From: Antedon mediterranea
Taxonomy: Eukaryota > Animalia > Echinodermata
Assembly: GCF_964355755.1 (NCBI RefSeq)
Contig: NC_092672.1
Location: forward strand, 2,728,001 to 2,792,000
Direction: 5' to 3'
DNA length: 64,000 nt
Below the pieces are notes generated by a model. That model saw nothing but the letters and a program-made list of their open reading frames with translations, searched no databases and was not told the origin of the DNA. Made by a program: the position numbers and the translations under genes. This document shows positions 462 through 58,894 of the stretch, one piece after another; positions within the stretch are counted from its first letter, which is position 1, and every line of letters begins with the position of its first letter.

Positions 462-3058
462 TTATTTATAATAGAACAATATTCTTCTCTTTAAACACTC
501 TTCGGTCAAGTAATTGATTACATCACCTGATAGATTGCAATCCCGCATGTAAAGCTCCCTCAGCTTAGGACACATAATGAGTAATGAAGACAATGAATTA
601 ACAATGTTGTGAAGGTTATTTCGAGAGATATCGAGAATATCTAATGGCAATTGAACTTGTTTGTGAGAACAGTCTGTACTCAAGTGATTGATGACATCAA
701 CTGATAGATTGCAATCCCGCATGTAAAGCTCCCTCAGCAGCTTAGGACACATAATGAGAAATGAAGACAATGAATTAACATCAATGTTGTGAAGGTTATT
801 ACCAGAGATATCGAGAATATCTAATGGCAATTGAACTTGTTTGTGAGAACATTCTGTACTCAAGTGATTGATGACGTCAACTGATAGATTGCAATCCCGC
901 ATGTAAAGCTCCCTCAGCTTAGGACACATAATGAGAAATGAAGACAATGAATTAACATCAATGTTGTGAAGGTTATTACCAGAGATATCGAGAATATCTA
1001 ATGGTAATTGAATTTGTTTGTGAGAACATTCTGTACCCAAGTGATTGATGACGTCGCCTGATAGATTGCAATCCGGCATCCAAAGCGCCCTCAGCTTAGG
1101 AGACATAATGAGTAATGAACACATTAAATTAACATCAATGTTGTGAAAGTTATTACCAGGGATGTTGAGATAAGTTAATGCTAATTGAACTTGTTTGAGA
1201 GAACATTCTGTAACAAAGTGTTTGAATGCATCAGAGTCTCCTATTAGATTCTTAATAATCGTTCGTTCGTCACATTCAGCTATGGCTAAAATGTGTGCAA
1301 TTACTTTTCCCTTGCATTCCCCTGCCATCCTACCACTACTAAAACGCTCGATTTTTTCATCAAAATCCTCCATGCAATAAAGTTGCATAATCAGACGTAT
1401 GAAATGCCCATCACATTGTACATCTGGAAAAATGTGTTTAATAAACAATCTTATGGAATTAGCTATATCGTCCAAATGATTCTTTATTTCTAAATTTTGA
1501 ATGTGATTATTTAATTCATTTATCACATCATTTCTTTGTTTTTTAACAAAATTTAAATGAGCTGGTAGAGAACGGTATGTTGACAAATTATTTGTTATCC
1601 AATGCTTTAAAAATACATTAGCGTTAGCACCAAGGAAACCAATTGCAAACTCTCTTGCTTTGTATAAATACTCACTTTCTCTTATCACCTCCCATTCTTT
1701 ATCATCCAATGGTGCAAGTAATCGTTTTATATCTGTGTTACATCCACACTTCATACCTTTACTTTCACATAATTTACACTCACCCCATGTATTATCATCA
1801 AATGGTGTAAGTAGCCGTCTTACATCGTCTTCGCATTCAAACTTCAAACCTTCACTTTCACATAATTTGCTCAAGTACAGTCCTACCAATGACTCAACTA
1901 TCAACTTGTGGGGTGGCATGAAAACACTTTCAAAGTTAGATTTTAAAATTGGTGCTTCTTCGTAAACAAATCCAAGTTTGACGGCCATGTCAACCAAGTC
2001 CTTATTCGAATGTGTATTATTCAAATCTTTTCTGTTTATTGAAAGTTGATTTTGTTTTAAGCTTTTATACATACACTTTCCTAGCAAAACCATAGCGTAT
2101 ACATACTTCGCTGGGGTGTCTTCAAATTTAGAAATTTTGGCAAATTGTTTTTGTTTGTTAAATTGATTTAAAATACTACGGAAAAGTTGCTTGAAAAGAT
2201 CAGAACTGTCACTAGGAAGACTTTGATCGTTTTCCCATAGCATACAGATTGAAAGAAGTGACATTGGGTTTTTGCACATTGAATATGCTTCTGGATGTTT
2301 TGGAAAATAATTAGTTTGATTATATAATTCCCTTTTAAGCGATTCTCCCAATTGCGGTTCTCTAAAATATTTAAAATATTTATCAATATACTCCCATATC
2401 CTCTCTTGATTAAATCCCTTAACTCTTACATGTACGTTACACTCTCTTTTAAATTCATCTATGTTTTCTGATCGTGAAGTAAGTATCACAGTACTTTTTT
2501 TAAAGTTGTCTTTTCTGAAAAGACTAATAACGCTTTGATTATTAAATCTCAATTCATCTAATCCGTCTAGTAGCAAAACAATTTTGTCTTCAAGTATCTT
2601 TATACATTTCTTAATTAACCGTGGATCTTCTGGGAGATCTGTCTCTAAATTGAAATCTGTCATATCCAGTTGCTTTACAATTAAATCATAGATATCGGCA
2701 TCTTTTTCCAAATCTCTCAGACATAAAAAAAATACAATTTTACCTTCAAAGATATTATTAGATTGATTAGGTGTGGCCCACATGTATGATAAATGTCTTA
2801 ATATGGTAGTTTTACCAATTCCACCTTCTCCTTCTATGAGAGCTTTACATCCAGGTTTAGAACTGATAACATCAATCTCTTCTTCCAATGTTGTTGGGTT
2901 GCCTCCTTTATTGTTTTCAGTTTCCTTCTGTAGTTCCATATCGGTAAACATCTGTGAAATGTCAACTTTGTATCTATTATTCATTATTGCAGGTGTAAAT
3001 ATACTGGCCTGGCTGCACTTGTCCGTTTGTATTTTAATCAGATATGTTTGTATCTTTT
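462..3058 (-). other. Single large terminal exon of NLR1 encoding NACHT, helical domains and all LRRs
   Basis: 868-aa ORF 462..3068. The acceptor ttttag is at 3059-3061 on the minus strand, so the ORF-track start codon is intronic. Confidence 0.9.
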
Positions 3059-6000
3059 CTAAAAACAACGAAAGTTATTCAATAGAGAGAATCTTATACT
3101 TAATCATATTCTATTAAGCATTTTATATATTATTATTATTATTCTTGATATAAATTCATCTTAATTACCGTATTTATTTATATTTTGTTTATTTTAGTAG
3201 GCCTAAGTTGGTAACAATTATAGTGGTTAGGTTGTACTTTTTACAGGCCTAGATAATGTCCATCCTGAAATATTTTATAAAAAATTGCTATAATATTAAT
3301 TTATTATAGCAATTTTAAACTATTTACTTAATAGCAGACTCTGTGGTATAGATATTTGTATTGTGCTTTTTGTAAATTATTAAGGTTTTAGAGGGCGACA
3401 AACACATTTTCTTTACTATCAGAAACAGAAAACTGTAATTGATCAAGAGGGCAGCAAACCGAAAAATAAATTTATCACAAATCAATACTGTAGATGTACG
3501 TTCAGGCCGGTAGACCACGATATTTCAGATTTAAATCAAACTAACTCGGTCAAAAAACGATATATGTATGTAAGTTTCATATTTAGTTGTTAATTTCTTA
3601 ATTTTCGCTGCAATAAAAGAGTTGTTCATATGCGAGCGACTGCACTGAGAGAAACAATTTAATTGTTGAAATACGATTGTTGGAATGAGGTGTAGACAAG
3701 AGGAATTGTTCTATATTGTAATTATATAATATCATACTAATCCTAATTATAATTACATTGTTCATGTTTTTTTCTTTTATAAGACTTGTTTAAAACTTAA
3801 CTCAATAAATCAAAATTTACAACAAGAAATTTTCTACTGCATAAAAAAATCGTCTTATTTAATTATACAATACATTCTAATAACTAACCTGTTTCTGACT
3901 CAACCTTATTCTGCGTTTCTTGTCCTTTGTTACTAGTAGTCGACACATCCACTGTTTAATAAATAAATAAATAACTGTCTTAATAATTATTATCAAACCG
4001 ACCTTATTACTTTACAATTATTCTACCGCATAATAAACTTCTTTATAGGAGAAAACTTTTAGAGTTTACAGTTATTAACTAACCTGTTTCTGCTTTTTGC
4101 GTTCCTTGTTCTTCGTTACTAGTGTTCGGCACATTTACTGTTTAATGATAAATTAGAATAGATAAATAGTTTAGTTAATTAAAAATAATTATAAATTTCA
4201 TAATATATAAATACAATTCTAATATAAAGAAATACAGTTTTCATTGCAGAAATATTCCAATTTAAGTAGTCAAGATATATTGCAATTAAGGTCTTTTTTT
4301 ACCAAAAAAAAAAAATCCTTTTTAGTAACGCACTTGTATATAGAGGGCGACAAACACAAGTTGAAATCAATCAGAAGGAGAAAACTTCAATCTCTGTACT
4401 GACATGATCGGAAATGACGTCAAACTGGTTTTTTTATAAACCAAAAGAGACAATAGGCCTAACCAAAGTAAAACAAGACTAAATATTCAACAAAATCCGA
4501 GATTAGATACATTTTACAGAGAGCATAAATTTAGAAACCTTCCACCCATTGAATTGTAATATTATTTGTTAATCTGTAACTCACCAGTTTCTGATTTAAC
4601 TTCTTTTTGTGTTTCTTCGTTAGACCTACCACTGGTCGGCGGCACTTCCTCTGTTAATAAAAATAACAGGAGAAATCTGAATTTACAATAATTTTAGGGA
4701 TTCATTTAAGCATAAATAATATCTAATTAAGATATAAAAAAACCTAAACCATTCGAATTAAATTCAAATAATGGCCAAACGAGTTTTGTTACATATTAAA
4801 CAAATCAATGGTGATGTGATTGATTGTTGTTTTCCCCGTAAATATTTGTAGTATGCCCTGCTCAACCTACCAGTTGATTTTAGAGTCAAAGTTTTCTAGA
4901 TTTATAATAATCCTTCTTTTCACAAATTTGTTGAATTAGATTAGGAATGATGAATGGAATGTATTTGTGGTTGATTTGGCTTCAATAATATCATCTCTAT
5001 ATTATATTTGTTCAATAATTGAAAACATGCCTCTGGATATCAATCAATCAATCAATTTATTTGGAAATTGCACCTTTACATCGGTGGCACACACAGTAAG
5101 TGGTGCATCCATATTAAACACAATTAACATAAAATGACGGATACTTAAGCTAATTTACAAAGTTAAAAAATTTAAAAAAAAAAATTTAAAATTAGTACTA
5201 TATACTGTGGCAATATTTGTATGAGTTGATACATCATTTTAGTTAAATATATAGATATTGGTTCCATGTGTGTTAAGGAACCTCCATCTTTTATCGGTTT
5301 TCTCAATCGTCATATTCATTTATTTACAATAAGGTAAGTATAAAAAATGATGATAACGTTGTATCTTAATGAGTAGTTATTAAGCTATCGTCTAATAAAG
5401 GTGTTAATAACACTACCAAATATTGACTGGAAAACAATCACAATTATACAATATGTCGTGTTACGACTTGTTTGGTTCACACTAACGTAACGCAATAATG
5501 TAGACCCAACGCAAGCGAATAGACCAATGATAAGCGACAGTTTGAATAATGCATCGCTTGTGATTGGTCAATTCACGACGTTGCTAAATATTTAATGTAT
5601 ATCTCCAGGCCTCATAACAGTAACTAACCTGTTTCTGATTTAACTTCTTTTCGTGTTCCTTCATGACTACTGGTCGTCGGCAAACAATCTGAATTAATAT
5701 TAAGAGCGCAATTCAGCATAGAATAATTTATACAAAAAAAAACTATTTACCATTATATACACATTACCAACAAAATGAAATCATTTTGTTATTGTTTACT
5801 GTATGGCCAAACAGTTGTGACTAACCTGTTTCTGACTTCATATCTGTTCTCATTCTTGTGTTACTACTATGCACTTCTGATAGATAAAAACAAATACAAT
5901 GACTTTTACCTAATGAATAAAATGATTATTTCTAGATATTGTTTATTTTCAAAATAATACGTTTGTGAATGTTATTCAAATTGAATTGTATTATGTTATG

Positions 6001-7852
6001 GTTAATGTAGGCCCTATATACTGTAAATACAATACCTGATTCTGACTCAGACTCGTTCGCCTGCCTATTTTTCCTTTCTGTCATTTTGGATCCGCCGCTG
6101 TTATCCTCTGCTTGTATTCCTGGTTCGTTGTTAGGTCTACAACTGGTGGTTGGCATTTGTTCTGTTTAAAAGAATAAACTGAATTTACAATATGGTATCT
6201 ATCTCGTGAACAACCAATGATCGGAGTATAAAATCAGCTAATAATAACGTATTAATTTGGAAATTAGTTAGGTTTATAGAGGGCGACAAACACAATTTGT
6301 GATCGACAAAAAGTAAATCACAAATCTGAAATAAACCAACACAAAACCGTATATCATATTTATTCGAACAAACGCCTCTCTCAAATAAACGCCCCATTAA
6401 AACAACATTTTGTATGTAGGCCTACAAAGTAGAATTTATTGACTTTCATGATCTCTACAATTTAGCAAACATATTAATTATATTGATACAATTGTTAATT
6501 TTGTTACAATAACGGATTTTGTTATATCCGACTGCACAATGAGGTGTAGGCTATAAGACATGAATTGTTCTAATACTAGATATAATGTTTTTTTTCGTAC
6601 AGTACAGAAAACATAATTACTATTACTAATAACTCACTTGTTTCATGTTCTACCTGTACTATTTGTTCTTCGTCACTGGTGTTCGGTGCATTTACTGTTT
6701 AATAAGAAACAATACAAATACAAATAAATGATAAAATAATAATATTCTACTCCATCAAATCAAATTGGGAGCCTTAGTATAAAAATAAGATTAATTATAT
6801 TAGCGGCGGTAAACACGGGCATATATTTGTTGGTCATTGTGTGTACCTTTTTTATTCGGACATAATGCGTTGAAACACCGGTTCTCGTCAGATTACCGGA
6901 AGTTAAGCAATTCGTTGGCCTGGTTGCGTTTGGAAATACCTCCGTCTGGAAATATCGCGTCGGCTGCTGTTATAGACCAGTGGTGAAATGATGGGAATCG
7001 ATAGCTAGGATAGGCATGAGTTCGTCCATATCTGTACCATGCTGATTGTTGTGTCATTAGGCAAGATATGCTTTACTCTCTCATTGCTTTGTTCTAATCC
7101 AATTCTAAGTTACGCTTGGGGACGATAATAACTAGGCCTACTACCTTTAATGTGGATGTTTTACACATAGGCTATTCATATAGTATTCTTCAATTAATTA
7201 TTTGTTTGCTAATTCGTTCCTGTTACATACCTTGTGTCAGGCATTTCATCGTTGATGCCACTCCAATTTTGTTAAGAATGTTAATAAACTCTTCTTTTCT
7301 TTCTTCACAAAGTATTTGTCTTTGTTCCAAGTCTATAATCATACTCCAAGAGTCTTCATAATTCTTTAATGGATTGTTGAAGAGTGCATCAATTTTCTTA
7401 ACAGCAGCCTTTCTTAGTTCGTTTCCAAAATCTGCAATCCAGTGTCGATATGGGGTGAAATTTATAATTTGTATTTCTTGAACTTCGAAGAAAGATTGTT
7501 GAAAAACGTTGATAGCTCCAAACGTTTGGGTTACTTTTATCGTTTCATAAAGTAACTCCAGATTGCCTGGGCTTAAACGCCCTGTTTTCCTCAATGCATT
7601 CAGTAGATCTATCGTTGTGTTGGCTTTGTCTATGTCTGCTACTGAAATTAAATCGTGGTATAAAACCTTCAGCTGTCTGACGAGGTTGTTTTTATCATAC
7701 CATTCTGAAAAGTTCACCAAGTCCACATTAAAATCTATTTCTAAAAATATAAAAGTGGGAAAAAGAGAAGATTAGAAAAAACATTTTTAAAATTGTTCTA
7801 CTCGATGCAATACAAAAAAGACTATTTATTGTTTGTTACCTGTTGCCGCCAT
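462..7852 (-). CDS. NLR copy 1: tandem-DED + micro-exon linker + NACHT + LRR, about 1198 aa if all exons are included. Exons in transcript order: 7840-7852, 7231-7740, 6638-6694, 6036-6161, 5826-5876, 5629-5688, 4585-4650, 4084-4137, 3889-3951, 462-3058
   Basis: Walker A GEGGIGKT, Walker B LLLDGLDE, sensor-1 LTSR, winged-helix His (PPHKLIVE) and C-terminal LxxLxLxxN/C repeats. Every listed exon has GT-AG borders with phase-1 junctions, and the sum (3597 nt) is in frame. Confidence 0.88.
500..1200 (-). repeat. Four tandem ~177-bp (59-codon, two-LRR) units in NLR1
   Basis: The anchor ctgatagattgcaatcc recurs at 527, 701, 881 and 1058 (periods 174, 180, 177) and the units are near-identical in DNA. 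Confidence 0.9.
3889..6694 (-). other. Array of seven paralogous symmetric micro-exons (57, 126, 51, 60, 66, 54, 63 nt) encoding the NLR1 linker
   Basis: Each has a cag acceptor and a gttagt, gtgagt or gtattg donor, a length divisible by 3 and no stop. Shared peptide pattern x-V/M-P-x-T-S...E-V-K-S-E-T. Confidence 0.8.
5466..5585. mobile_element. Decayed Harbinger-like MITE, same family as 56136-56341, in an NLR intron (paralogous copy at ~32512-32630)
   Basis: Shares ttggttc(a/c)cacta..cgtaacg, aacgcaagcg..accaatga and gcttgtgattggtcaattcac with 56136-56341. Confidence 0.55.
6853..7135 (+). mobile_element. 5S rRNA-derived SINE (SINE3-like) or 5S pseudogene with a SINE body
   Basis: 6853-6970 resembles animal 5S rRNA (gttgaaacaccggttctcgtc.gat.accg..agttaagcaa) but is degenerate at box C. 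It is followed by a tgttgtgtc.ttaggcaag motif resembling SINE central domains. Confidence 0.7.
7231..7740 (-). other. NLR1 exon encoding tandem death effector domains (170 codons)
   Basis: DED1 pattern LKVL..DLIS..DLLNAL..GRLSPGNLELLYE. DED2 starts FTPYRHWI..GNEL and includes LEQRQIL, resembling caspase-8/cFLIP tandem DEDs. Confidence 0.75.
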
Positions 7853-8411
7853 GATGTCAATTCAGTTTTCTATCTTCATTTCTGAAAAGCAAAATTTTTG
7901 TTTTTACAATAAATGCTGTCAAACCATGTCACCAGTGCTTTTCAGAGTAGACCTCTCTTTTTAAGTTACTTATTATGTCCCTCTACTTCTGTTCATTCAT
8001 TGCCTTAAAGAGTTCCCTCTGCTAAGGAACAGTTAAAATGTTCATTTTCTTCCCAATGGTTAGCTGTTAAGGACAAAATAAACTAAGTTCTCAACAACTA
8101 ATGATGTGAATTCAAAGTATATCTGATAACATAGGCGTTTGCGCTGATTAGAGCACCAAACAATGGTATGATGGACAAAGGTTACGTTTATGGTGTATGG
8201 CGTGATGTCTAATCACTAAATAAATACACTTTTAACTTTTATAAATGTGTTTACTTCCATGCTATAAGTCACGTAGTCAGAGCCCTATTTTCTACCCTGC
8301 CCCTGTACCCCTCAATTATCTTTTTTTTGCGAAGAGCCAAAAATACGTAAACAATGGAAATACAGTGGTCTATATTAATATTGATTATGACCATGATGTA
8401 TCTACAAATGT

Positions 8412-8745
8412 TATCTATAATCATACTCCAAGCGTCTTCATAATTCTGTAAGGGATTATTGTAGAGTGCATCAATTTTCCTAATGGCAGCCTTTCTGAAT
8501 TCGTTTCCAAAATCTGCAATCCAGTGTCGATATGGGGTGAAATTTATACTCTTGATTTCTTGAACTTCTTCAAGAACAGATTGTTTATGTTTTGTTTTAC
8601 ACCAACCTGTTGGTTACTTTTATTGTTATATAAAGTAATGTAAAATTGTCTGGTCTAAATGTCCTGTTTTCTTTAAATCATCCAGTAGTTCTTTCGTTCT
8701 ATTGGCTTTGCTTTGCTACTGAAAAAAATTAACGTAGTAACAATG
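8412..8745 (-). pseudogene. Decayed copy of the tandem-DED exon
   Basis: Aligns with 7333-7670 (for example the identical tcgtttccaaaatctgcaatccagtgtcgatatggggtgaaatttata) but has indels and truncated ends. Confidence 0.85.
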
Positions 8746-19670: not shown

Positions 19671-20061
19671 GCTTGCAAACGTTAAATTTTATTGTAAATA
19701 AATCCTAAGATGCATGGTTGAACCTGATAAATAAAATAAAAATAATCATATTATTATAGTAAATTAGTTGAAAACAGCATATTAATTAAACGTTTGAAGA
19801 CGGTGTTCTTTCTGAGTGCTATTAAGATGTCAACGACTAGGCCACTTCTACTCTACTAATAAAATTATATTAGTTAGTAATTACTAATAATAATTATAAC
19901 ATTAATACTGTAATACTGAAATTGCACAGCTGGTTTACCACACTGGCACCGTACTTGCCACACCCCTGCCAACAGTCACAAGCTATATGCAAAAAAGTGC
20001 AGGTACTCTTTATCAGGATATCCTAGGTAGGCCTACTACTAGCCTACTAAAGCTACTACTG

Positions 20062-21085
20062 TTCTTGATAACAGACAACAAAGAGTCAAAGTGCGTCATG
20101 CTTCGTCCAGTTGGGCTGATGTAATTAGTGGAGTTCCACAAGGCTCGGTGTTGGGCCCTACATTGTTTGCATTATATATAAATGACCTACCAAAGTATGT
20201 GTCTAGTCATATAAAGCTATTTGCTGATGATACAAAGATCTACTCAGTAGTTAACAACAGAAATGATGGGCAATTATTACAAGAATCTTTAAACAATGCA
20301 CTGCAGTGGAGTAAAGAATGGATGTTGGCTTTTAATAAAAGCAAATGCATGGTGATGCACTTCGGGCATTCAAATGTTCATTTTAAATACCAAATAGATG
20401 AAGTTGAACTGGAAACAGTTGAGAAAATAAAGGACCTAGGAGTACTAATTACTAATGACTGTAAACCAAGCCAACACTGCGCCAAAGTATCTCAGCGGGC
20501 CATGAACTGTTTAAGAAGCATCAGAAGGACTTTCGTATATATGGATAAGGATTGTTTTAACGTCATCTACAAGCATTATGTACGCCCACATCTCGAATTT
20601 TGTGTTCAAGTATGGAATCCGTATCTTCAAAAGGACATAAATGTAATTGAAAGAGTACAACGTCGTGCGACTAAATTAGTTCCATGTATCCGTTCATATT
20701 CATATGAAGATCGTTTAAAGTTTCTTGGCCTAACAACCTTGTATGACAGAAGAATTCGAGGTGACCTGATTGAAGCATATAAAATTGTTAAAGGTTTCGA
20801 GGGTGTAGCCAAGGATGACTTTTTCCAAATGAGAAGTAACATTAGCAGAATTACTCGAGGGCATCACCTGAGATTTTTCAAGCCTACTTTCCATAAAGGA
20901 TTGAACTGTAGAAGACATACCTTCTCGCAACGAGTAATTAACCATTGGAACAGTTTACCAGCCGACGTTGTCAATTCTGAGACCGCTAATACCTTCAAGA
21001 ATCGCATCGACACAATGTAGTTGATATGGGGTTTAAAAAGGCACATCGCCTAAACTTTCCCATTATAACTAAACTAAACTAAACT
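20062..21085 (+). mobile_element. 5'-truncated CR1-type LINE (C-terminal RT part of ORF2, stop at 21020)
   Basis: GVPQGSVLGPTLF, FADD, IERVQRRATKLV, RRIRGDLIEAYKI and TRGH motifs, short 3' UTR and (aaact)n tail. Absent from the paralogous region at ~57140-57190. Confidence 0.93.
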
Positions 21086-28231: not shown

Positions 28232-31200
28232 TTAATAACAGAAAGGTATCTTTCTCTTCAAACACACTTCGGTCAAGTAATTAATTTTTTCACCTGATAG
28301 ATTGCAATCCCTCATGTTAAGCCACTCCAGCTTAGGACACATAATGAGTAATGAAGACATTGAATTAACATCAAGGTTGTGAAGGTTATTACCAGAGATA
28401 AAGAGATAACGTAGTGCTAATTGAACTTGTTTGAGAGAACATTCTGTACCCAAGTGATTGATGACGTCACCTGATAGATTGCAATCCCTCATGTCAAGCA
28501 CCCTCAGCTTAGGACACATAATGAGACACAGTGAATTAACATCAATGTTGTGAAGGTTATTACCAGAGATATCGAGATAACGTAATGCTAATTGAACTTG
28601 TTTGAGAGAACATTCTGTAACGAAGTGTTTGAATGCATCAGCGTCTTTTAATAGATTCTCAATAATCATGTATTCGTCATATTCAGCTATGGCTAAAATG
28701 TGTGCAATTACTTTTCCCTTGCACTCCCCTGCTATCCTACTACTACTAAAATGCGCGATTTCTTCATCAAAATCCTTCATGCAATAAAGTTGCATAATCA
28801 GACGGTTGAAATGTCCATCACACTGTTCACCTGGACTTATGTGTTTAATAAAAAATCCTATGGAGGTAGCTATATCGGCCGAAGGATTCTTTATTTCTAA
28901 ATCTTGAATGTGATAATTCAAAGCATTTACCACAGCATCTTTATGGTTTTTTTTAACAAACTTTAAATTACTCGGCAGAGAGCGATATGTTGACAAACTA
29001 TTTGTAACCCAGTGCTTTAAAAAAGCATTAGCGTTAGCACCAAGGAAACCAATTGCAAACTCTCTTGCTTTGTTTAAATACTCACTTTCTCTTATCACCT
29101 GCCATTCAGTATCATCCAATGGTGTAAGTATTCGTCTTACATCTTCTGTGAATTCATTCTCGATACCATCACTTTCACATAATTTGCTCAAGTACAGTCC
29201 TACTAATGACTCAACTATCAACTTGTGAGGAGGCATGAAAACACTTTCAAAGTTAGATTTTAAAATCGGTGCTTCTTCATAAACAAATCCAAGTTTTACG
29301 GCCATGTCAATCATATCTCTTGTAGAATGTGTATCATTCAAATCTTTCATGTTTATTGAAAGTTGATTCTCTTTTAATTTTTTATACATACATTTTCCTA
29401 ACAAAATCATAGCATGTATATATTTTGCTGGAGTGTGTTCAAATTTAGAAATTTTGGCAAATTGTTTTTGTTTGTTAAACTGATTTAAAATACTACGGAA
29501 TAGTTGTTTAAAAAGATCAGAACTGTCACTAGGAAGACTTTCATTATCCTCCCATAGAATACAAATTGAAAGAAGTAACATCGGGTTTTTGCACATCAAA
29601 TAGGCTTCTTCATGTTTTCTCCCAGCCAAATAACTGTGAATATCCAACTCTTCTTTAAGCGACTCTCCCAATTCTGGTTTTCCAAAATACTTAAAATGAT
29701 TGACAATATACTTACCTATACTATCTTTGTTAAACCCCTTAACCCTTACATGTACGTTGCACGATTTTATGAAATAATTGATGTTTTCTGATCGGGACGT
29801 AAGCACTACAGTACTTTTTTTAAAGCTATTCCCGCTGAAAATTCTGGTTATGGTTTGATTATTAAATCTTAATTCATCTAATCCATCTAGTAGCAAAACA
29901 ATTTTGCCTTCATGTATCTTTATAAATTTCTTAATTAACCGTGGATCATTTGGGAGATCTGTTTCTAAATTAAAATCTTCCATATCCAGTTGCTTTACAA
30001 TTAGGTCAAATATGTTATCACCTTCTTCTAAATCTCGTATACTTAAAAAAAATACAATTTTACCTTCAAATGCTTTAATTGATTGACATGGAGTGGCCCA
30101 GTTGAATGATAAATGTCTTAATATGGTAGTTTTACCAATACCTCCCTCGCCCTCTATAAGAGCTTTACATCCAGGTTTAGAACTGATAACATCAATCACT
30201 TCTTCTAATGTTGTTGGTTTGCTGGTTTCTTTATTGTTTTCACTTTCCGTTAGTAATTCCATATCGGTAAACATATGTGAAATGTCAACTTTGTATATAT
30301 CATTCATTGTTGCAGGTGTAAATGTACTGGCCTGTTTGCACTTTTCCGTTTGTATTTTAATCAGATATGTTTGTATCTTTTCTAAAAACAAAGAAAGTTA
30401 TTCAATAGAATATTATACTTAATCATATTCTATTAAGCATTTTATATATTATTATTATTATTCTTGATATAAATTCATCTTAATTACCGTATTTATTTAT
30501 ATTTTGTTTATTTTAGTAGGCCTAAGTTGGTAACAATCATAGTGGTTAGGTTGTTCTTTTTACAGGCCTAGATAATGTCCATCCTGAAATATTTTATAAA
30601 AAATTGCTATAATATTAATTTATTATAGCAATTTTAAACTATTTACTTAATAGCAGACTCTGTGGTATAGATATTTGTATCGTGCTTTTTGTAAATTATT
30701 AAGGTTTTAGAGGGCGACAAACACATTTTCTTTACTATCAGAAACAGAAAACTGTAATTCATAAAGAGGGCAGCAAACCGAAAAATAAATTTATCACAAA
30801 TCAATACTGAAGATGTACGTTCAGGCCGGTAGACCACGATATTTCAGATTTAAATCAAACTAACTCGGTCAAAAAACGATATATGTATGTAAGTTTCATA
30901 TTTAGTTGTTAATTTCTTAATTTTCGTTGCAATAAAAGAGTCAACCTTTTTCTGCGTTTCTTGTCCTTTGTTACTAGTAGTCGACACATCCACTGTTTAA
31001 TAAATAAATAAATAACTGTCTTAATAATTATTATCAAACCGACCTTATTACTTTACAATTATTCTACCGCATAATAAACTTCTTTATAGGAGAAAACTTT
31101 TAGAGTTTACAGTTATTAACTAACCTGTTTCTGCTTTTTGCGTTCCTTGTTCTTTGTTACTAGTGTTCGGCACATTTACTGTTTAATGATAAATTAATAG

Positions 31201-34200
31201 ATAAATAGTTTAGTTAATTAAAAATAATTATAAATTTCATAATATATAAATACAATTCTAATCTAAAGAAATACAGTTTTCATTGCAGAAATATTCCAAT
31301 TTAAGTAGTCAATATATATTGCAATTAAGGTCTTTTTTTACCAAAAAAAAAATCCTTTTTAGTAACCACTTGTATATAGAGGGCGACAAACACAAGTTGA
31401 AATCAATCAGAAGAAGAAAACTTCAATCTCTGTACTGACATGATCGGAAATGACGTCAAACTGGTTTTTTTATAAACCAAAAGAGACAATAGGCCTAACC
31501 AAAGTAAAACAAGACTAAATATTCAACAAAATCCGAGATTAGATACATTTTACAGAGAGCATAAATTCAGAAACCTTCCACCCATTGAATTGTAATATTA
31601 TTTGTTAATCAGTGTAACTCACCAGTTTCTGATTTAACTTCTTTTTGTGTTTCTTCGTTAGACCTACCACTGGTCGGTGGCACTTCCTCTGTTAATAAAA
31701 ATAACAGGAGAAATCTGAATTTACAATAATTTTAGGGATTCATTTAAGCATAAATAATATCTAATTAAGATATAAAAAAACCTAAACCATTCGAATTAAA
31801 TTCAAATAATGGCCAAACGAGTTTTGTTACATATCAAACAAATCAATGGTGATGTGATTGATTGTTGTTTTCCTCGTAAATATTTGTAGTATGCCCTGCT
31901 CAACCTACCAGTTGATTTTAGAGTCAAAGTTTTCTAGATTTATAATAATCCTTCTTTTCACAAATTTGTTGAATTAGATTAGGAATGATGAATGGAATGT
32001 ATTTGTGGTTGATTTGGCTTCAGTAATATCATTTCTATATTATATTTTTTCAATAATTGAAAACATGCCTCTGGATATCAATTAATCAATCAATTTATTT
32101 GGAAAAATTGCACCTTTACATCGGTGGCACACACAGTAAGTGGTGCATCCATATTAAACACAATTAACATAAAATGACGGATACTTAAGCTAATTTACAA
32201 AGTTAAAAAATTAAAAAAAAAAAATTAAAAATTAGTACTATATACTGTGGCAATATTTGTCTGACATGAGTTAATACATCATTTTAGTTAAATATAGAGA
32301 TATTGGTTCCATGTGTGTTAAGGAACCTCCATCTTTTATCGGTTTTCTCAATCGTCATATTCATTTATTTACAATAAGGTAAGTATAAAAAATGATGATA
32401 ACGTTGTATCTTAATGAGTAGTTATTAAGCTATCGTCTAATAAAGGTTTTAATAACACTACCAAATATTGACTGGGAAACAATCACAATTATACAATATG
32501 TCGTGTGTTACTTGTTTGGTTCACACTAAGGTAATGCAATAATGTAGACCCAACGCAAGCGAATAGACCAATGATAAGCGACAGTTCGAATAATGCATCG
32601 CTTGTGATTGGTCAATTCACGACGTTGCTTAATATTTAATGTATATCTCTAGGACTCGTAACAGTACGGTAACTAATCTGTTTCTGATTTAACTTCTTTT
32701 CGTGTTCCTTCATTACTACTGGTCATCGGCACTTCCACTTTATAAATATATAATTAACAGAAAACAATCTAAATTAATATTAGGAGCGCAATTCAGCATA
32801 GAATTAATTTATATATAAATACTATTTCCATTATAATTATACACATTACTAACAAAATGAAATCATTTTGTTAGTGTACGTCTATACATATTGGTAACAA
32901 AATTAACAATTTTCTGACTTCATATCTGTTCTCATTCTCTTGTTACTACTATGCACTTTCTCTTATAAATAAAAACAAATCTAATGACTTTTACCTAGTG
33001 AATGAAATGATTATTTCTAGATATTGTTTATTTTCAAAATAATACGTTTGTGAATGTTATTCAAATTGAATTGTATTATGTTATGGTTAATGTATATACT
33101 GTAAATACAATACCTGATTCTGACTCAGATCCGTTCGTCTGCCTCTTCTTCCTTCCTGTCATTTTGGATCCGCCGCTGTTATCCTCTGCTTGTATTCCTT
33201 GTTCGTTGTTAGGCCTACAGCTGGTGGTTGGCAATTCTTCTGTTTAAAATAACAAACTGAATTTACAATATTATCTATCTTGTGAACAACCAATGATTAG
33301 AGTATCAATCCAGCTAATATACAACATTACGTATTAATTAGGTTTTTATAGAGGGTGACAAATAAAATATGCTCAACAGAAGGCAGTAAAATAAAAAAAA
33401 AATAAAAAATCTGTAATAGATGTTTAGTCAGCGATCTTTCAGATTAAATACAAAACCGTATATCAAATTTATTCGACTAAACGCCTCCCTTTGAATACAC
33501 GCCTCTCTCAAATAAACGCCCTATTAAAACATCGTTTTGTATGTAGGCTTACAAAGTAGAATTTATTGACTTTCATGATCTCTACAATTTAGCAAACATA
33601 TTAATTATATTGATGCAATTGTTAATTTTGTTACAATAACGGATTTTGTTTGATAATTAGTTCCTGTTACATACCTTGTGTCAGGCATTTCATCGTTGAT
33701 GCCAGTCCAATTTTGTTAAGAATGTTAATAAACTCTTCTTTTTTTTCTTCACAAAGTATTTGTCTTTGTTCCAAGTCTATAATCATACTCCAAGAGTCTT
33801 CATAATTCTTTAAAGGATTGTTGAAGAGTGCATCAATTTTCTTAACAGCAGCCTTTCTTAGTTCGTTTCCAAAATCTGCAATCCAGTGTCGATATGGGGT
33901 GAAATTTATAATTTGTATTTCTTGAACTTCAAAGATAGATTGTTGGAAAACTTTGATAGCTCCAAACGTTTGTGTTACTTTTATCGTTTCATAAAGTAAC
34001 TCCAGATTGCCTGGGCTTAAACGTCCTGTTTTCCTCAATGCATTCAGTAGATCTATCGTTGTGTTGGCTTTGTCTATGTCTGCTACTGAAATTAAATCGT
34101 GGTATAAAACCTTCAGCTGTCTGACCAGGTTGTTTTTATCATACCATTCTGAAAAGTTCACCAAGTCCACATTAAAATCTATTTCTAAAAAAATAAAAAG

Positions 34201-34289
34201 TGGGAAAAAGAAAAGATTAGAAAAAACATTTTAAAATTGTTTTCGATGCAATACAAAAACACCATTTTTTGTTTATTACCTGTTGCCAT
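28232..34289 (-). CDS. NLR copy 2: tandem-DED + reduced micro-exon linker + NACHT + LRR, about 971-989 aa. Exons 34280-34289, 33675-34184, 33114-33239, possibly 32908-32961, 31623-31688, 31125-31178, 28232-30381
   Basis: Same NACHT motifs as copy 1, an uninterrupted 719-aa ORF, an intact DED exon and phase-1 junctions. Confidence 0.87.
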
Positions 34290-34849
34290 TTTGTCAATTC
34301 AGTTTTCTATCTTTATTTCTGAAAAACAGAATTGCTGTATTTAAGATAAATGCTGTGCATCCGTTTTTCAAATTGAAGACCTTCTTTAAACAAGAAATAT
34401 TTCTTACAAAAAAACGCTGCTCGCTTATTGACTTATTCACTTTGGTTCATTTTATTGCTAAGGTCAAGTCGGGGGTCACTTCATCACGCCTAGATACATG
34501 GACTGTTTTAATAATAATTCATTGATTTATCTGACACCAAATTACAGTATTATATAATATCATGGGACTCATAAATACCAGAAATGCTTTGGGATTTGTC
34601 ATTCAACCGTTAGACTCTTTTCCCAGACGTTTTTGGGTCTAGCAGGTGGGACCTATAAATTATGGTGGAGTTTACATTTTCGCAAAAATGTCAGTCCCTC
34701 AGTACTAAAACTGCTGCTGCTTTATATCGGATTACGTCATCTCTTGTGACGTAGCGGGCTAAAGCAGCAGCGTGAAAAATGTTTAAAATTAAACAATAGG
34801 CCTAATGTAAATAAATAATTTTGTTTGACAGATCCAGTAAAGAATTTAC

Positions 34850-41567: not shown

Positions 41568-44198
41568 ATATTAGGAAGATACAGAAAAAACTTGAATATA
41601 GACTTTCAATACAAGCCATTTAGGTGGTATATAATGTATTGTCAATAAAGGTCGTTGTGTCCCATTTATGTAGAGATTCAATGTACAACCATAGAAACCT
41701 TTTGTTTTTACAACTCATCATGTCCATAATACAGGACAAGTCGAAAATTCATTCTATGCGCATACAGAAAAATGAGCATGCGCAGAATGACTATTAGACT
41801 CAATAGCTGTGCTGTAAAAACAAAAGTGGCTAAGTGTTTCGTTCGTTCACCTTCACACCAAGTGTATCTAAAATAGCACCTGATTAATTTGTATACGCAA
41901 AGGCAGTTTGAGTAGCATTCTATAGGATTTTACTTGGAATATTTAGATGTGGTAAAACTTCACTTATTTTTTAATTTTTCAGATAATAAGCCGCCAGGGT
42001 TGAATCCTATGAAAGCAATGTACATGTTTGATGACTTAGCAATGCAACGTAATTACACCGGTGTTCCATTTTCACAATCCGTCCCAACGTCATTCTTTGA
42101 AAAAGTAAGTCAAAAGAAATTACGAAAACATGAAGATTGTTTGAAGGTTTGCATGACGAAGAAAAACAAAGGTTGGGGCATATCATGTTACCGTACCACA
42201 AAGGTTGGGGCATATCATGTTACCGTACCACAAAGGTTGGGGCATATCATGTTACCGTACCACAAAGGTTGGGGATATCATGTTACCGTACCACAAAGGT
42301 TGGGGATATCATGTTACTGTACCACAAAGGTTTGGGGATATCATGTTACTGTACCACAAAGGTTGGGGGATATCATGTTACCGTACCACAAAGGTTAGGG
42401 GATATCATGTTACCGTACCACAAAGGTTGGGGAATATCATGTTACTGTACCACAAAGGTTGGGGGATATCATGTTACCGTACCACAAAGGTTGGGGAATA
42501 TCATGTTACCGTACCACAAAGGTTGGGGGATATCATGTTACCGTACCACAAAGGTTGGGGATATCATGTTACCGTACCACAAAGGTTGAAGGGATATCAT
42601 GTTACCTTACCACAAAGGTTGGGGGATATCATTTTACCGTACCACAAAGGTTGGGGCATATCATGTTACCGTACCACAAAGGTTGGGGGATATCGTGTTA
42701 CCGTACCACAAAGGTTGGGGCATATCATGTTACCGTACCACAAAGGTTGGGGGATATCATGTTACTGTACCACAAAGGTTGGGGATATCATGTTACCGTA
42801 CCACAAAGGTTGAGGGATATCATGTTACCGTACCACAAAGGTTGAGGGATGTCATGTTACCGTACCACAAAGGTTTGGGGATATCATCTTACCGTACCAC
42901 AAAGGTTGGGGGATATCATGTTACCGTACCACAAAGGTTGGGGGATATCATGTTACCGTACCACAAAGGTTGAGGGATATCATGTTACCGTACCACAACG
43001 GTTGGGGATATCATGTTACCGTACCACAAAGGTTGGGGCATATCATGTTACTGTACCACAAAGGTTGAGGGATATCATGTTACCGTACCATAACGGTTGG
43101 GGATATCATGTTACCGTACCACAAAGGTTGGGGGATATCATGTTACCGTACCACAAAGGTTGGATGGATATCATGTTACCGTACCACAAAACTGACTTTC
43201 AATGTGTTGGGAGGATTAGAGTTTCTCTAAATGTATATTAAATCATACTTTGTTACAATTTATAAATTTCATTTTGTCATTCTAGATTCTTTGACGGCAC
43301 ATAGATTTTTGACCGACATCCAGATGACCTTGAAGAAGTATCAAGACAATTATGGATAAGAATGTGGTCAAAGGTCAACTAGTTCCAAGCATTTATTATT
43401 TCTATATAATATAATTATATTAACTTAAAAATAATTTTTTTAACAGGATAAAGAAATTTCAGATCCCACATCCGTTCTTGAGGTATGTGAAGATTAAATT
43501 TTTTTTTATAAAACTTTTTTTTTGGCAATCAAAATTACAAAAAACTGGATTAATATTTTTGTTGATTGGGGTGAAAATTTAAATTTAATACTATATTATG
43601 ATATATGATATGATATCTATTGTCATATCAAATCTACATCTTCAATTATTTTTAGGCAGTCCTGGCTGCTGGAATGTCTGAAGAGGTCGCTAATAAATGC
43701 ATGTCAAAGGTCAAAGATTAATCAACAAAGGAAGAGTTAAAAAGAATAACAGGCAATGCACTCGAAAGTGGTGTAAGTAATTTGAATTTAAAGTTTATTT
43801 TTTATTTTTAAAATTAATTCAATTCACAGTATATATTGGCGAGTCTGTAGTATACAATTACATATTCAAATAAAAAACGTGATTTTAATTTGTAGCCATT
43901 TGGCCACCATGGATATTAGCTCACAAAGATGGAGAAGTAAAGACATTTTGGGGAATAGATAAAATACCTCTTTTAGCTCATGTAATAGGTAAAAACGCAT
44001 GCAAATTATCAAATAATACTTGTAGTAGGCATACATTTAGTATTTTAAAATCACTGTATTATTAGCAGTATTGTCATCATATATTTGTCAATGTTTTCAT
44101 TTTCATTAGAAATTAATACTGTGATAATATTTTTTTTAACTTTTATACTTACAGGTGAAAAATGGGAAGGTCCATTAAAACCATCATCAAAATTATAG
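41568..44198 (+). pseudogene. GSTK1: GSTK1 pseudogene (exons 2-8)
   Basis: Exon 1 not found, exon 2 3' end disrupted, 13-nt deletion in exon 4, TAA at 43719-43721 in exon 6 and a 1-nt deletion in exon 7. The last exon is identical to the functional copy. Confidence 0.92.
42167..43190 (+). repeat. Minisatellite, about 32 units of 31-33 bp (caaaggttgggg(g/c)atatcatgttaccgtacca)
   Basis: Head-to-tail units without spacers. Confidence 0.95.
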
Positions 44199-56100: not shown

Positions 56101-56846
56101 AGCGTCGACTAATGTCGACAGGAAAACAGGCTTAAAGCTTGGTTCCCACTAGAACGTAACGTAAGGACGTAAACGCAACGCAAGCGTTTTAACCAATGAC
56201 AAGCGAAGTTATAGACAGTTTTAGCAATCACAAGCGAATAAGCCATCGCTTGTGATTGGTCAATTCACTTGCGTTGCGTTACGTCCTTGTGTTGCGTCGG
56301 TGGGAAAAGGGAATTTACAACTCCCTGGTGGGAACCACGCTTTATAGAGGCAGTGGAATCCTCTATTCATTTTTTCGCATTACGACGACGTCGAATTGAT
56401 CGTTTTAGAACGATCGTCGTTGAACTTTTAACGATTAACGATGAATGATGATAGCGTTGACAGGAAAACAGGCTTAAGTCGACAGGAAAACAGGCTTTAG
56501 GTGACCGTGACGCACCCATTTTGTCATGGACTAACCCTAAAGACAATCGGTAGCGTCAATTGACCTACCTAACTTGACCTCTATGCGATTTAAGCTCTGT
56601 TGACCTTAGTGTGAATAAAATGGATGGTTGATTGTTCACTATACACATTGGGATACAAACGGCTGCGTTTGATTTCAACCCTTTCAACATTCTTCTTAGA
56701 GGATGTACTTGGTCCATTATCTTTATTGCTCTTTCTTTGTTGTTTGACGAGAAAACATTTTCTGTTATCCAAGAAGAGGACGTTCTGTTGCTATAGTGAC
56801 AACTTCGCACGGAAAAGACAATTTGATACCGAAGTGACCGGTACAT
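47184..56846 (-). CDS. NUDT8: NUDT8-like copy B, 267 aa. Exons 56569-56846, 48100-48232, 47892-47972, 47184-47495
   Basis: All four exons are open with intact splice sites and the same Nudix box as copy A. The C-terminal tail is longer and divergent. Confidence 0.88.
50805..52475. mobile_element. MULE-like element with long TIRs
   Basis: TIR gggtgtgtagaaagcgacgacctcgaattggacgacc extending ~260 bp, with 10-bp TSD tcaaccgttc. Confidence 0.88.
51199..51995. mobile_element. MULE-like element nested within 50805-52475
   Basis: Imperfect TIR ggat...gttg(g/a)gccgccgacaa.ttgag and 9-bp TSD tgcatgggg. Confidence 0.75.
52483..54623 (+). repeat. 85-bp tandem repeat array split by a hAT insertion (52483-52692 and 54315-54623)
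   Basis: Unit ttcggctcgcacgataaatacacgtggtgatttttacaagaggggtacagtgcgtgtacattaaatggaatttccacaacaatag. Confidence 0.88.
52693..54314. mobile_element. hAT-like non-autonomous element with an internal ~340-bp direct repeat
   Basis: TIR cag(g/t)ggtggcgccag, perfect 8-bp TSD cattaaat, and 53577-53910 repeated at 53915-54235. Confidence 0.88.
55375..56132. mobile_element. Complete Harbinger-like MITE inserted into an older copy of its own family
   Basis: taa|agcctgttttcctgtcgac ... gtcgacaggaaaacaggct|taa. The body matches 48673-49110 and 56345-56474. Confidence 0.82.
56136..56341. mobile_element. Harbinger-like MITE
   Basis: TIR agc(t/g)tggttcccac(t/c)ag flanked by taa / tta. Confidence 0.75.
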
Positions 56847-58814
56847 GCTTGCAAACGAGAAAATTTTATTGTAAATAAATCCTAAAATGCTTGGTTGAAC
56901 CTGATAAATAAATAAAAATAATCATAGTAAATTGGTTGTTCTTTCCAATCGGGTGCTATAAGACGTCACGACTAGGCCACTACTACTACTCTACTAATAA
57001 TATTAGTAATAATTATTACATTAATAATACTGAAATTGCACAGCTGGTTTACCACACTGGCACCGTACCGTCCCGCAGATATCCTGCCACACCCCTGCCC
57101 ACAAAAATCTATATGCAAAGTTCAGGTACTCTTTATCCTAGCTAGGCTTACTCTACTACTAGGCATAGTACTCCACTCTGTAGTACCTCCTGCGCCTTAC
57201 TACAGCAACGCACGTATCTTGGCTGCCTAAAACTTGTTTTAAACTATACTGCTCTACTGCTGTAGGCCTATGTAATGTACCGACAAATCAAATAAATCAT
57301 TGTCAAATTATTTTTCGAAGAACACAAATTCGTTAAACAATCAACGAACGGGATCTTGTACTTCTTTCAACGTGACATTGTTAATAGCAAAAATGTGTTA
57401 ATTTACAATAAATATACAATATAAAACAGTGTTTTTTGTTTGTGTTTATACTCTAAATACCAGGTCTACCTACCTACCTGCAATTGCTGTACGAACTCTA
57501 ACTAAACGACTTTGATTGGGTCCTACTAAATACCACCAGATACCAGCAGATACCTACCAGAGCAACAAATCCTACCACCAGAAAGCAGCCACCTGTTTAG
57601 AATTATTAATGGTATATTACAAATTTTAATTCTTTCAGAAACTGATAAAATTGAAGTTAGAAGCAACTCCTCCCTGTTAAAAGTCGAATGTCTCGCCGTC
57701 GCAATTCCAGAATCGAATTCGTTCGATCTTATAATCCGTGTCTGTTGTGTATTGTATTCAGCGGTCAACATTACCGTGTGGCGCTATAATGCATTTATTT
57801 GGTCAAATAAATTCATTTATTATTTATTTCATTCCAGACCAACAGCGAAACATCGCCACTACTCAGGCCGGTTAAAATCTTAATAAAAACTACTTTAGAT
57901 AAACAATTTAAATCATTAAAACAAGATGACATCGATCGAATATAGAAAAACGATATTTCAGGTTAAAAGTGATGTAAAATAATAGAATGGAAAGAAGCGA
58001 TCAATATTGGTGCTATTACTTAGGGAATTATATCGCATTTTGGTCAAATAAAATCAGAAATCATTTTCTGTACACTATAACATTTAATAATAAATAAAAC
58101 TAATGTTTACACATTTTTTGTCTTTTAAAAAAAAATGAAACCATAGAATTGACTAGAACGGTCATTTCAGTATTATGTTTAATAATGCGTGTGTCTTTTT
58201 GATCATCTATAATTGTACCCAAAGTATTTATTCATACACAATCCAAATGTTATCGATTTTCATGTAATTAAAAAGAATTGTTACAAAAATACAACAGAAA
58301 ATGACGCACAGAAATTCAAGGCTATTTATTTCAAAACAAGGTTGAATTGGATGACATGACTTCCAAAAAATGTCGATTTACTAAAGGAAAGATTCTTTAA
58401 AGAAAATCTTGATTTTGGTAAAATACGCTATTTTGCCGCCGAAATCAAACACATGTTAGCCGTTTGAGTGGATTGAAATTCTAGTGAGTACATTAACAAT
58501 ATTAAAATTAGCAACTGACTGGGAAACATTAAAAGTAGCCGACCTGATTGACAAGATAAAGGATCGTGAAACCAAAAAGTCATTTTAACCCTTTTGTATG
58601 ATAAACTTCCAACAATGTTATTTGTTATATGTTACTTTTTGCCATACGAATACGATAAAAATATAAATCGGCGTAATGAAAGAAATCGCGCAACGGCGAT
58701 TGGTGTATTTTTTTGTACCAATTTTTTAAGCTGTCGTACATATTTCTCCAGATGCTGTAGCTTACATATATATATGTAAGCTATAGCTATACAGCTTATA
58801 ACATTACAACTAAC

Positions 58815-58894
58815 CTGTTTCTGATTTAACTTAACTTCGTCATCTCCATGACTTCGTGTTCCTTGGTTTTCGTTACTACTGGTCGGCATTTCAC
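58815..58894 (-). pseudogene. Orphan NLR linker micro-exon, frameshifted
   Basis: cag acceptor, gttagt donor and peptide EMPTSSNENQGTRSHGDDEVK. A 5-bp ttaac duplication makes it 80 nt instead of 75. Confidence 0.75.

Follow-up and report, generated by a model that had tools for sequence, protein, structure and literature searches.

A tandem array of short linker exons between tandem DED and NACHT in a crinoid NLR, whose variety probably reflects mainly exon gain and loss between genes

Introduction

A 64,000-nt stretch of the genome of the crinoid Antedon mediterranea (assembly GCF_964355755.1, contig NC_092672.1, positions 2,728,001 to 2,792,000; hereafter the window) contains an NLR gene in which seven short, related exons lie between the exon for a tandem DED and the exon for NACHT. 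Such an array raises the question of where linker variety comes from: is it spliced from a single gene, as proposed in an original prediction that allowed for up to 128 inclusion patterns, or does it arise in the DNA, from one gene to the next? The analysis presented here favours the second answer. The seven exons appear to be duplicates of one symmetric exon and to encode a DED-NACHT spacer that is predicted to be unstructured, and the variety of this spacer is probably generated mainly by the loss and gain of exons between genes, with occasional skipping. The feature described in the original prediction is real, and its interpretation was overstated.

Gene structure and domains

The window holds two NLR copies, both on the minus strand, at 462-7881 (copy 1) and 28232-34320 (copy 2). 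Copy 1 opens with a start exon (7840-7881) whose ATG begins the peptide Met-Ala-Ala-Thr and which ends in a phase-1 donor; the same N-terminus is present in P0099, the RefSeq model of copy 2. The tandem DED is encoded by a single 510-nt exon of phase 1-1 (7231-7740), and the gene closes with a single NACHT-LRR exon (462-3058) carrying four 177-nt leucine-rich repeats (LRRs), inside which the RefSeq model of copy 1, P0001, begins.

The DED exon gave a Pfam DED match of 34.7 bits (E 2e-8), slightly under the curated cut-off of 35.9. The structure model of its product has a predicted local distance difference test score (pLDDT) of 89.5, with the tandem DED of caspase-8 as the closest fold (template modelling score 0.81), and on this model the exon is predicted to encode a tandem DED of caspase-8-like fold. 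NACHT was confirmed by PF05729 (77.5 bits, cut-off 26.7), and the C-terminal LRRs by PF00560 (LRR_1; 26.6 bits, cut-off 20.6) along with the 177-nt repeats. The gene thus combines NACHT, C-terminal LRRs and an N-terminal death fold, the three parts of a metazoan tripartite NLR, and the exons do lie, as predicted, between tandem DEDs (identified by fold) and NACHT with LRRs (identified by Pfam).

The best match of the copy 1 NACHT reading frame was the identical RefSeq protein P0001, followed by dozens of paralogues from Antedon and Anneissia. DED, linker and NACHT-LRR are joined in one RefSeq model for copy 2 (P0099), while the model of copy 1 has no DED. The DED exon is intact in copy 1, with a ratio of non-synonymous to synonymous substitution rates (dN/dS) of 0.17. 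Within the NACHT exons of copies 1 and 2, RefSeq models also place in-frame introns, which remove 84 aa in P0001 and, in P0008, 55 aa that include the P-loop.

The seven linker exons

The exons, here E1 to E7, all lie on the minus strand and were confirmed as paralogous, 51-126 nt in length, bounded by AG and GT, of phase 1-1, divisible by three and free of stops. E2 (126 nt, 6161-6036) is an extended unit; among RefSeq proteins, P0099 has a unit 83% identical to it and P0004 one that is 80% identical. E5 (66 nt, 4650-4585) and E6 (54 nt, 4137-4084) are 100% and 94% identical to units of P0099, and E7 (63 nt, 3951-3889) is 90% identical to a unit of P0021. E3 (51 nt, 5876-5826) and E4 (60 nt, 5688-5629) have donor positions that are used in the splice joints described below. 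For E1 (57 nt, 6694-6638), the best RefSeq match reached 50%, none of the 75 crinoid RefSeq proteins compared exceeding this value, and no transcript support was found.

A candidate-exon rule matched eight times in the 4165 nt of the array (the seven exons and a second E3 acceptor) and four times in 65,210 control nt, corresponding to 0.26 expected in an array-sized stretch, a contrast that is overstated in that the donor list was tuned on E1-E7 themselves. As a family, E1-E7 are real exons, with weaker support in copy 1 itself. At 51-126 nt they are short exons, and most of them exceed the usual size limits for micro-exons.

All 128 subsets of units gave an open frame when spliced in silico with the start, DED and NACHT-LRR exons (1039-1198 aa), so that skipping without a frameshift is indeed possible. 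This symmetry of the whole array is accounted for by its origin, because tandem duplication of one symmetric exon yields it automatically; the paralogy of E1-E7 extends into their flanking sequence. Polar or charged residues, Gly and Pro make up 82% of the joined units, and when the whole copy 2 protein is modelled, its linker (P0099 residues 173-249) has a pLDDT below 50, which points to a linker predicted to be disordered.

The original prediction had suggested scanning all NLR paralogues of the genome with a profile of the unit. The scan covered the window, where it returned 14 matches: seven in copy 1, six in copy 2 and one 80-nt orphan (58815-58894, minus strand), out of frame and with neither DED nor NACHT beside it. 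The orphan sits downstream of a duplicate of the sequence lying upstream of copy 1.

Source of linker variety

The loss of units in the DNA is most directly seen in copy 2, a tandem paralogue and the closest one (RefSeq XP_071945142-145). Here E1 is absent, the E3 donor is degenerate, the E4 donor has changed from GT to AT and a deletion runs through the E7 donor. All four of its RefSeq transcripts carry E2-E5-E6, that is, all of the intact units and no others. The two copies were also considered as uncollapsed alleles; a synonymous divergence (dS) of 0.5 in NACHT favours paralogues, and contig depths were not decisive.

Other genes of the subfamily have differing subsets of units in the same order: P0004 has an E2-E5-E7-like linker, P0021 an E6-like unit and E7, and P0102 one E3-like unit. 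Linker length among 21 RefSeq proteins ranges from 13 to 284 aa. Furthermore, joints in the DNA contigs of one sample drop E1 (6517/7201), E5-E6 (4044/5621) or E5-E7 (3151/5548), each joint being present in three of three DNA-type runs with a short side of just 21-30 letters.

The two copies are mosaics. They are 96-99.5% identical over 2980-5579 and 97-98% identical in the DED exon, compared with 79-83% in the NACHT core, and dS is 0.06 in the DED versus 0.53 in the nucleotide-binding domain. Trees of DED and NACHT conflict for P0013 and P0108, with long branches flagged; the NACHT of P0013 falls in the P0024/P0101 clade (support 99/98) and its DED in a distant class (100/100). Judged from these sequence comparisons, DED, linker and NACHT do not share one history. 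Between the copies, dN/dS in the LRRs is about 1. Over the compared stretches (1780-7920 and 29095-34356), the introns and DED are much closer than the NACHT core, and the first 35 codons of the NACHT exon differ by no synonymous and eight non-synonymous changes.

This pattern fits the birth and death of units together with conversion or unequal crossover, with selection keeping the frame; the single orphan unit, outside any NLR, has lost it. By default, the intact units would be spliced in order. The resulting spacer may free the DEDs from the NACHT oligomer to recruit a DED caspase or adaptor, and its length could set an activation or localisation property for each gene. The phase-1 introns with their repeated flanks would serve as exchange points for unequal crossover and gene conversion.

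Splicing of the array

Splice joints were drawn from X1, a run guessed to consist of RNA contigs from another sample and including some intron-containing pieces; because of this composition, the missing X1 cover at E1 and E2 is not evidence of silence. Of its nine joints, three span GT-AG introns whose ends coincide exactly with predicted sites (4137/4585, 4650/5629 and 4137/7231), two fit unit variants (5682/5826 and 3957/4093), and four lie off splice sites and were not used (4407/4751, 4797/7191, 5877/7300 and 6303/3446). The joints use both splice positions of E5, the acceptor position of E6 and the donor positions of E3 (5682/5826) and E4 (4650/5629), while 3957/4093 fits the E7 acceptor. 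Neighbours are joined in genomic order, from E3 through E4 and E5 to E6. Mutually exclusive use of units was not found, as units are joined together both in RefSeq proteins and in the X1 joints.

The X1 transcript with the E4 donor position carries the ancestral E4 acceptor, not the acceptor of copy 1 at 5688, for which no transcript support was found. In copy 1 a 31-nt deletion has removed the ancestral acceptor, which is replaced by an upstream AG that is in frame by chance. The array of copy 1 might therefore be partly dead, with E1, E4 and perhaps E3 as pseudo-exons and E2-E5-E6-E7 as the working linker, or the gene might be expressed from the NACHT exon alone. Along with the lost acceptor, this explanation draws on E1, for which neither a RefSeq nor an RNA match was found, on the lack of DED and linker in P0001, and on a search in which no stand-alone DED-plus-linker protein (100-319 aa) was found. 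However, GT donors and triplet lengths are kept in seven of seven units, the DED exon is intact with its low dN/dS, and the related X1 transcript includes spliced units of the E3 and E4 types. We consider a partly dead array unlikely.

RefSeq isoforms are based on RNA-seq, and they were compared at eight crinoid NLR loci with differing isoforms, copy 2 included. Whole linker units differ at four of these loci, the difference being one 21-aa unit, a three-unit block, a 16-aa unit or, in Anneissia, a 29-aa unit. At the other four, it concerns one linker residue (one locus), the N-terminus (two) or the inside of NACHT (one, copy 2). No locus of the eight shows more than two unit combinations. At four further loci (P0005, P0006, P0036 and P0047), two to three transcripts each encode a single protein. 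In a separate observation, P0100 and P0019/P0101 are isoforms from one locus that share linker and NACHT but differ in the DED exon; P0100 may reflect an alternative effector exon, a mis-joined model or the mis-mapping of a paralogue.

Several points count against a source of variety that lies mainly in the DNA. The whole-unit differences at half of the multi-isoform loci mean that splicing cannot be neglected, and annotation from short reads may miss isoforms. The subsets of P0004, P0021 and P0102 were read from proteins and might be splicing choices. Only six of 384 X1 contigs reach 99% likeness, no transcript is assignable to copy 1 itself, and its RefSeq model, P0001, starts at a Met inside the NACHT exon and lacks DED and linker. 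Finally, the X1 joint 4137/7231, from the DED donor position to the E6 position, resembles a skip of five exons. We attribute this joint to a paralogue: since a neighbouring joint of equal depth has letters matching P0021, it appears to belong to that separate gene, whose model has such a linker.

These observations also bear on the reading that the units are independently skipped cassettes, with tens of linker isoforms per gene tuning signalling by cell type or challenge. The 128 open subsets and the whole-unit isoforms in two crinoid genera agree with it, and splice-level control is known for the alternatively spliced LRR exons of NLRP3 and the linker of ASC (PMC6642158; this and the papers cited below are drawn on in part). 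It is difficult to reconcile, however, with the ceiling of two unit combinations per locus, the loss of three units as one block, the fixed linker in all four copy 2 transcripts, the four further loci with one protein each, and the exon order of the X1 joints. Independent cassettes therefore seem quite improbable. Of the proposed splice-level diversification, limited unit skipping in the family is likely, whereas 128-way splicing of the array is unlikely, and loss and gain of exons between genes remains the preferred source of variety.

Comparison with known systems

Dscam-type and CD44/CD45-type immune receptor genes contain variable clusters of tandem paralogous or frame-symmetric exons. The crinoid array shares the frame-symmetric tandem exons with them, but its paralogues show at most two unit combinations at any of the eight loci and, in contrast to the Dscam type, its units are joined to each other and so are not mutually exclusive.

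The module was put forward as one with no known description in DED-NLRs. As a layout it is not new to NLRs: zebrafish NLR-B30.2 (NLR-C) genes of groups 2-4 already have several peptide repeats of ~30 aa before NACHT, one exon each (bioRxiv 10.1101/027151 = PMC4852459). In the same source, a death fold stands beside the repeats in group 2, repeat types are shuffled between groups, and gene conversion differs by gene part, with NACHT homogenised within groups; its main text is silent on splicing, isoforms and phase, and its supplements may show exon phases. By analogy of layout, both systems have single-exon repeats upstream of NACHT that are variable and shuffled between genes. They differ in that the zebrafish genes have a PYD-like fold, FISNA and B30.2, whereas the crinoid gene combines a tandem DED with NACHT and LRRs on one exon; copies 1 and 2 gave no Pfam match to FISNA or B30.2 at E <= 0.01. 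Moreover, it is DED and linker that are homogenised between the crinoid copies while NACHT diverges, unlike the zebrafish genes with their homogenised NACHT. The crinoid array is a new, convergent variant of an NLR layout already described in zebrafish.

Human NLRP3 is similar in having a short exon for the effector-to-NACHT linker and in demonstrating that splice-level tuning of an NLR exists. Its exon 3 encodes a 40-aa linker that governs cage formation and can be removed to leave a working protein with altered oligomer state and location; natural skipping was not observed, as far as the available part of that report goes (PMC13226650). NLRP3 has one such exon and the crinoid gene an array, and natural splicing in NLRP3 affects the LRR exons, whereas the crinoid LRRs lie inside the NACHT exon.

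The NLRP3 linker exon, which governs Golgi binding as well as cage formation (PMC13226650), also speaks for the reading that unit sequence rather than length matters, through motifs for nuclear import, phosphorylation, membrane-binding helices or protease bait, in which case gaining or losing units would alter the place and manner in which each receptor is triggered. The motif K-(K/R)-x-(K/R) occurs in six of 21 linkers versus 2.5 in shuffles (P 0.013), and shared units have a dN/dS of 0.40 (five synonymous and eight non-synonymous changes). Yet the motif was picked after viewing the sequences, the linkers are related to each other, the P0099 linker does not contain it and neither, by eye, do the copy 1 units, and units are freely lost between paralogues. 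This reading, which is compatible with exon loss and gain between genes, is very unlikely in our judgement. Basic motifs resembling nuclear import signals were seen in linkers of Anneissia and in distant Antedon linkers (P0006, P0010, P0022, P0034, P0040 and P0041). A protease-bait role of Gln-Gly sites was dropped, as the pair is not conserved across units.

Expansions of death-fold NLRs have been described in sponge (PMC3879445), sea urchin and amphioxus (PMC2858798) and holothurian (PMC8913654). The crinoid genes share with them lineage-specific growth, DEATH, CARD or DED N-termini, shuffling of N-terminal domains and, in some clades, NACHT and LRR on one exon. Neither a linker exon array nor crinoid genes figure in those accounts, to the extent that they were available (PMC3879445, PMC2858798, PMC8913654).

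The DED module on other proteins

A search with the DED exon also returned Antedon proteins of another architecture (RefSeq P0109-P0122, outside the window), in which a tandem DED is followed by a short linker, a hydrophobic, transmembrane-type segment with a mean hydropathy of 3.27, and a fibrinogen C domain. They come from at least five A. mediterranea loci on three contigs. In P0121, DED and linker unit are those of a P0024-like NLR (99/98), whereas the DED of P0109-type proteins is a different one. Across the fibrinogen-domain proteins the DEDs do not form a single clade: a common origin was rejected (approximately unbiased test, p-AU 0.017), and two independent DED origins are indicated. 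Their Ser/Thr stalk varies between isoforms (P0119, P0120 and P0111). A literature search of titles and abstract starts, with most subscription journals outside its coverage, returned no paper about linker exons in crinoid NLRs or about such DED-transmembrane-fibrinogen proteins.

Among 46 DED-bearing matches picked from the best 150 (taxa unspecified), the partners of the module included caspase, Roc-COR, TIR, Rel, RIG-I helicase, deubiquitinase and ankyrin. The same tandem-DED class is accompanied by a caspase in P0178, Rel homology in P0203, RIG-I helicase in P0231, Roc-COR in P0159 and deubiquitinase in P0243. With the module fused to caspase and other signalling domains, DED caspase recruitment is therefore its likely output.

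The exchange points proposed above could carry DED and linker together from one NLR to another, and also to other sensors. In a wider reading that we offer tentatively, and regard as rather doubtful, the phase-1 array would be a swap joint that moves a caspase-8-like tandem DED with its units between NLRs and unrelated sensors, having twice made DED-fibrinogen surface receptors, with unit skipping as a second layer.

Some crinoid NACHT proteins (P0049, P0051, P0046, P0048 and P0125) have, by eye, a strongly hydrophobic segment before NACHT, which was scored in P0049, P0051 and P0048; one of this group has EGF domains and some have DED-like N-termini. The linker of P0042 includes an OTU domain.

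Other features of the window

Copies 1 and 2 are enclosed by a larger rearranged duplication, and duplicated sequence of ~77-95% identity makes up much of the window, which prompted the allele question raised above. A decayed, frameshifted partial DED exon lies upstream of the copy 1 start exon (8392-8709, minus strand). At 20043-21020 (plus strand) lies part of the reverse transcriptase (Pfam RVT_1) of a LINE-like element, with duplicated sequence on its flanks, and a minisatellite at 42166-43190 comprises 32 copies of a 32-bp unit with 93% matches. An exon at 56565-56921 (minus strand) is a candidate for a Nudix/CoA pyrophosphatase N-terminus, which it resembles; Pfam gave no convincing match.

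Significance

The crinoid locus cautions that frame-symmetric exon arrays alone do not demonstrate splice-level diversification. It provides a convergent invertebrate case of the NLR linker layout, in which exon gain and loss are visible between two adjacent genes. If the DED-transmembrane-fibrinogen proteins, whose N-termini derive from these NLRs and which are gene models only, are real, surface pattern recognition would be tied directly to DED signalling. Should the array also have acted as a swap joint, a death-receptor-like lectin, with a fibrinogen-type outer domain and a cytoplasmic tandem DED, would have been assembled from NLR parts.

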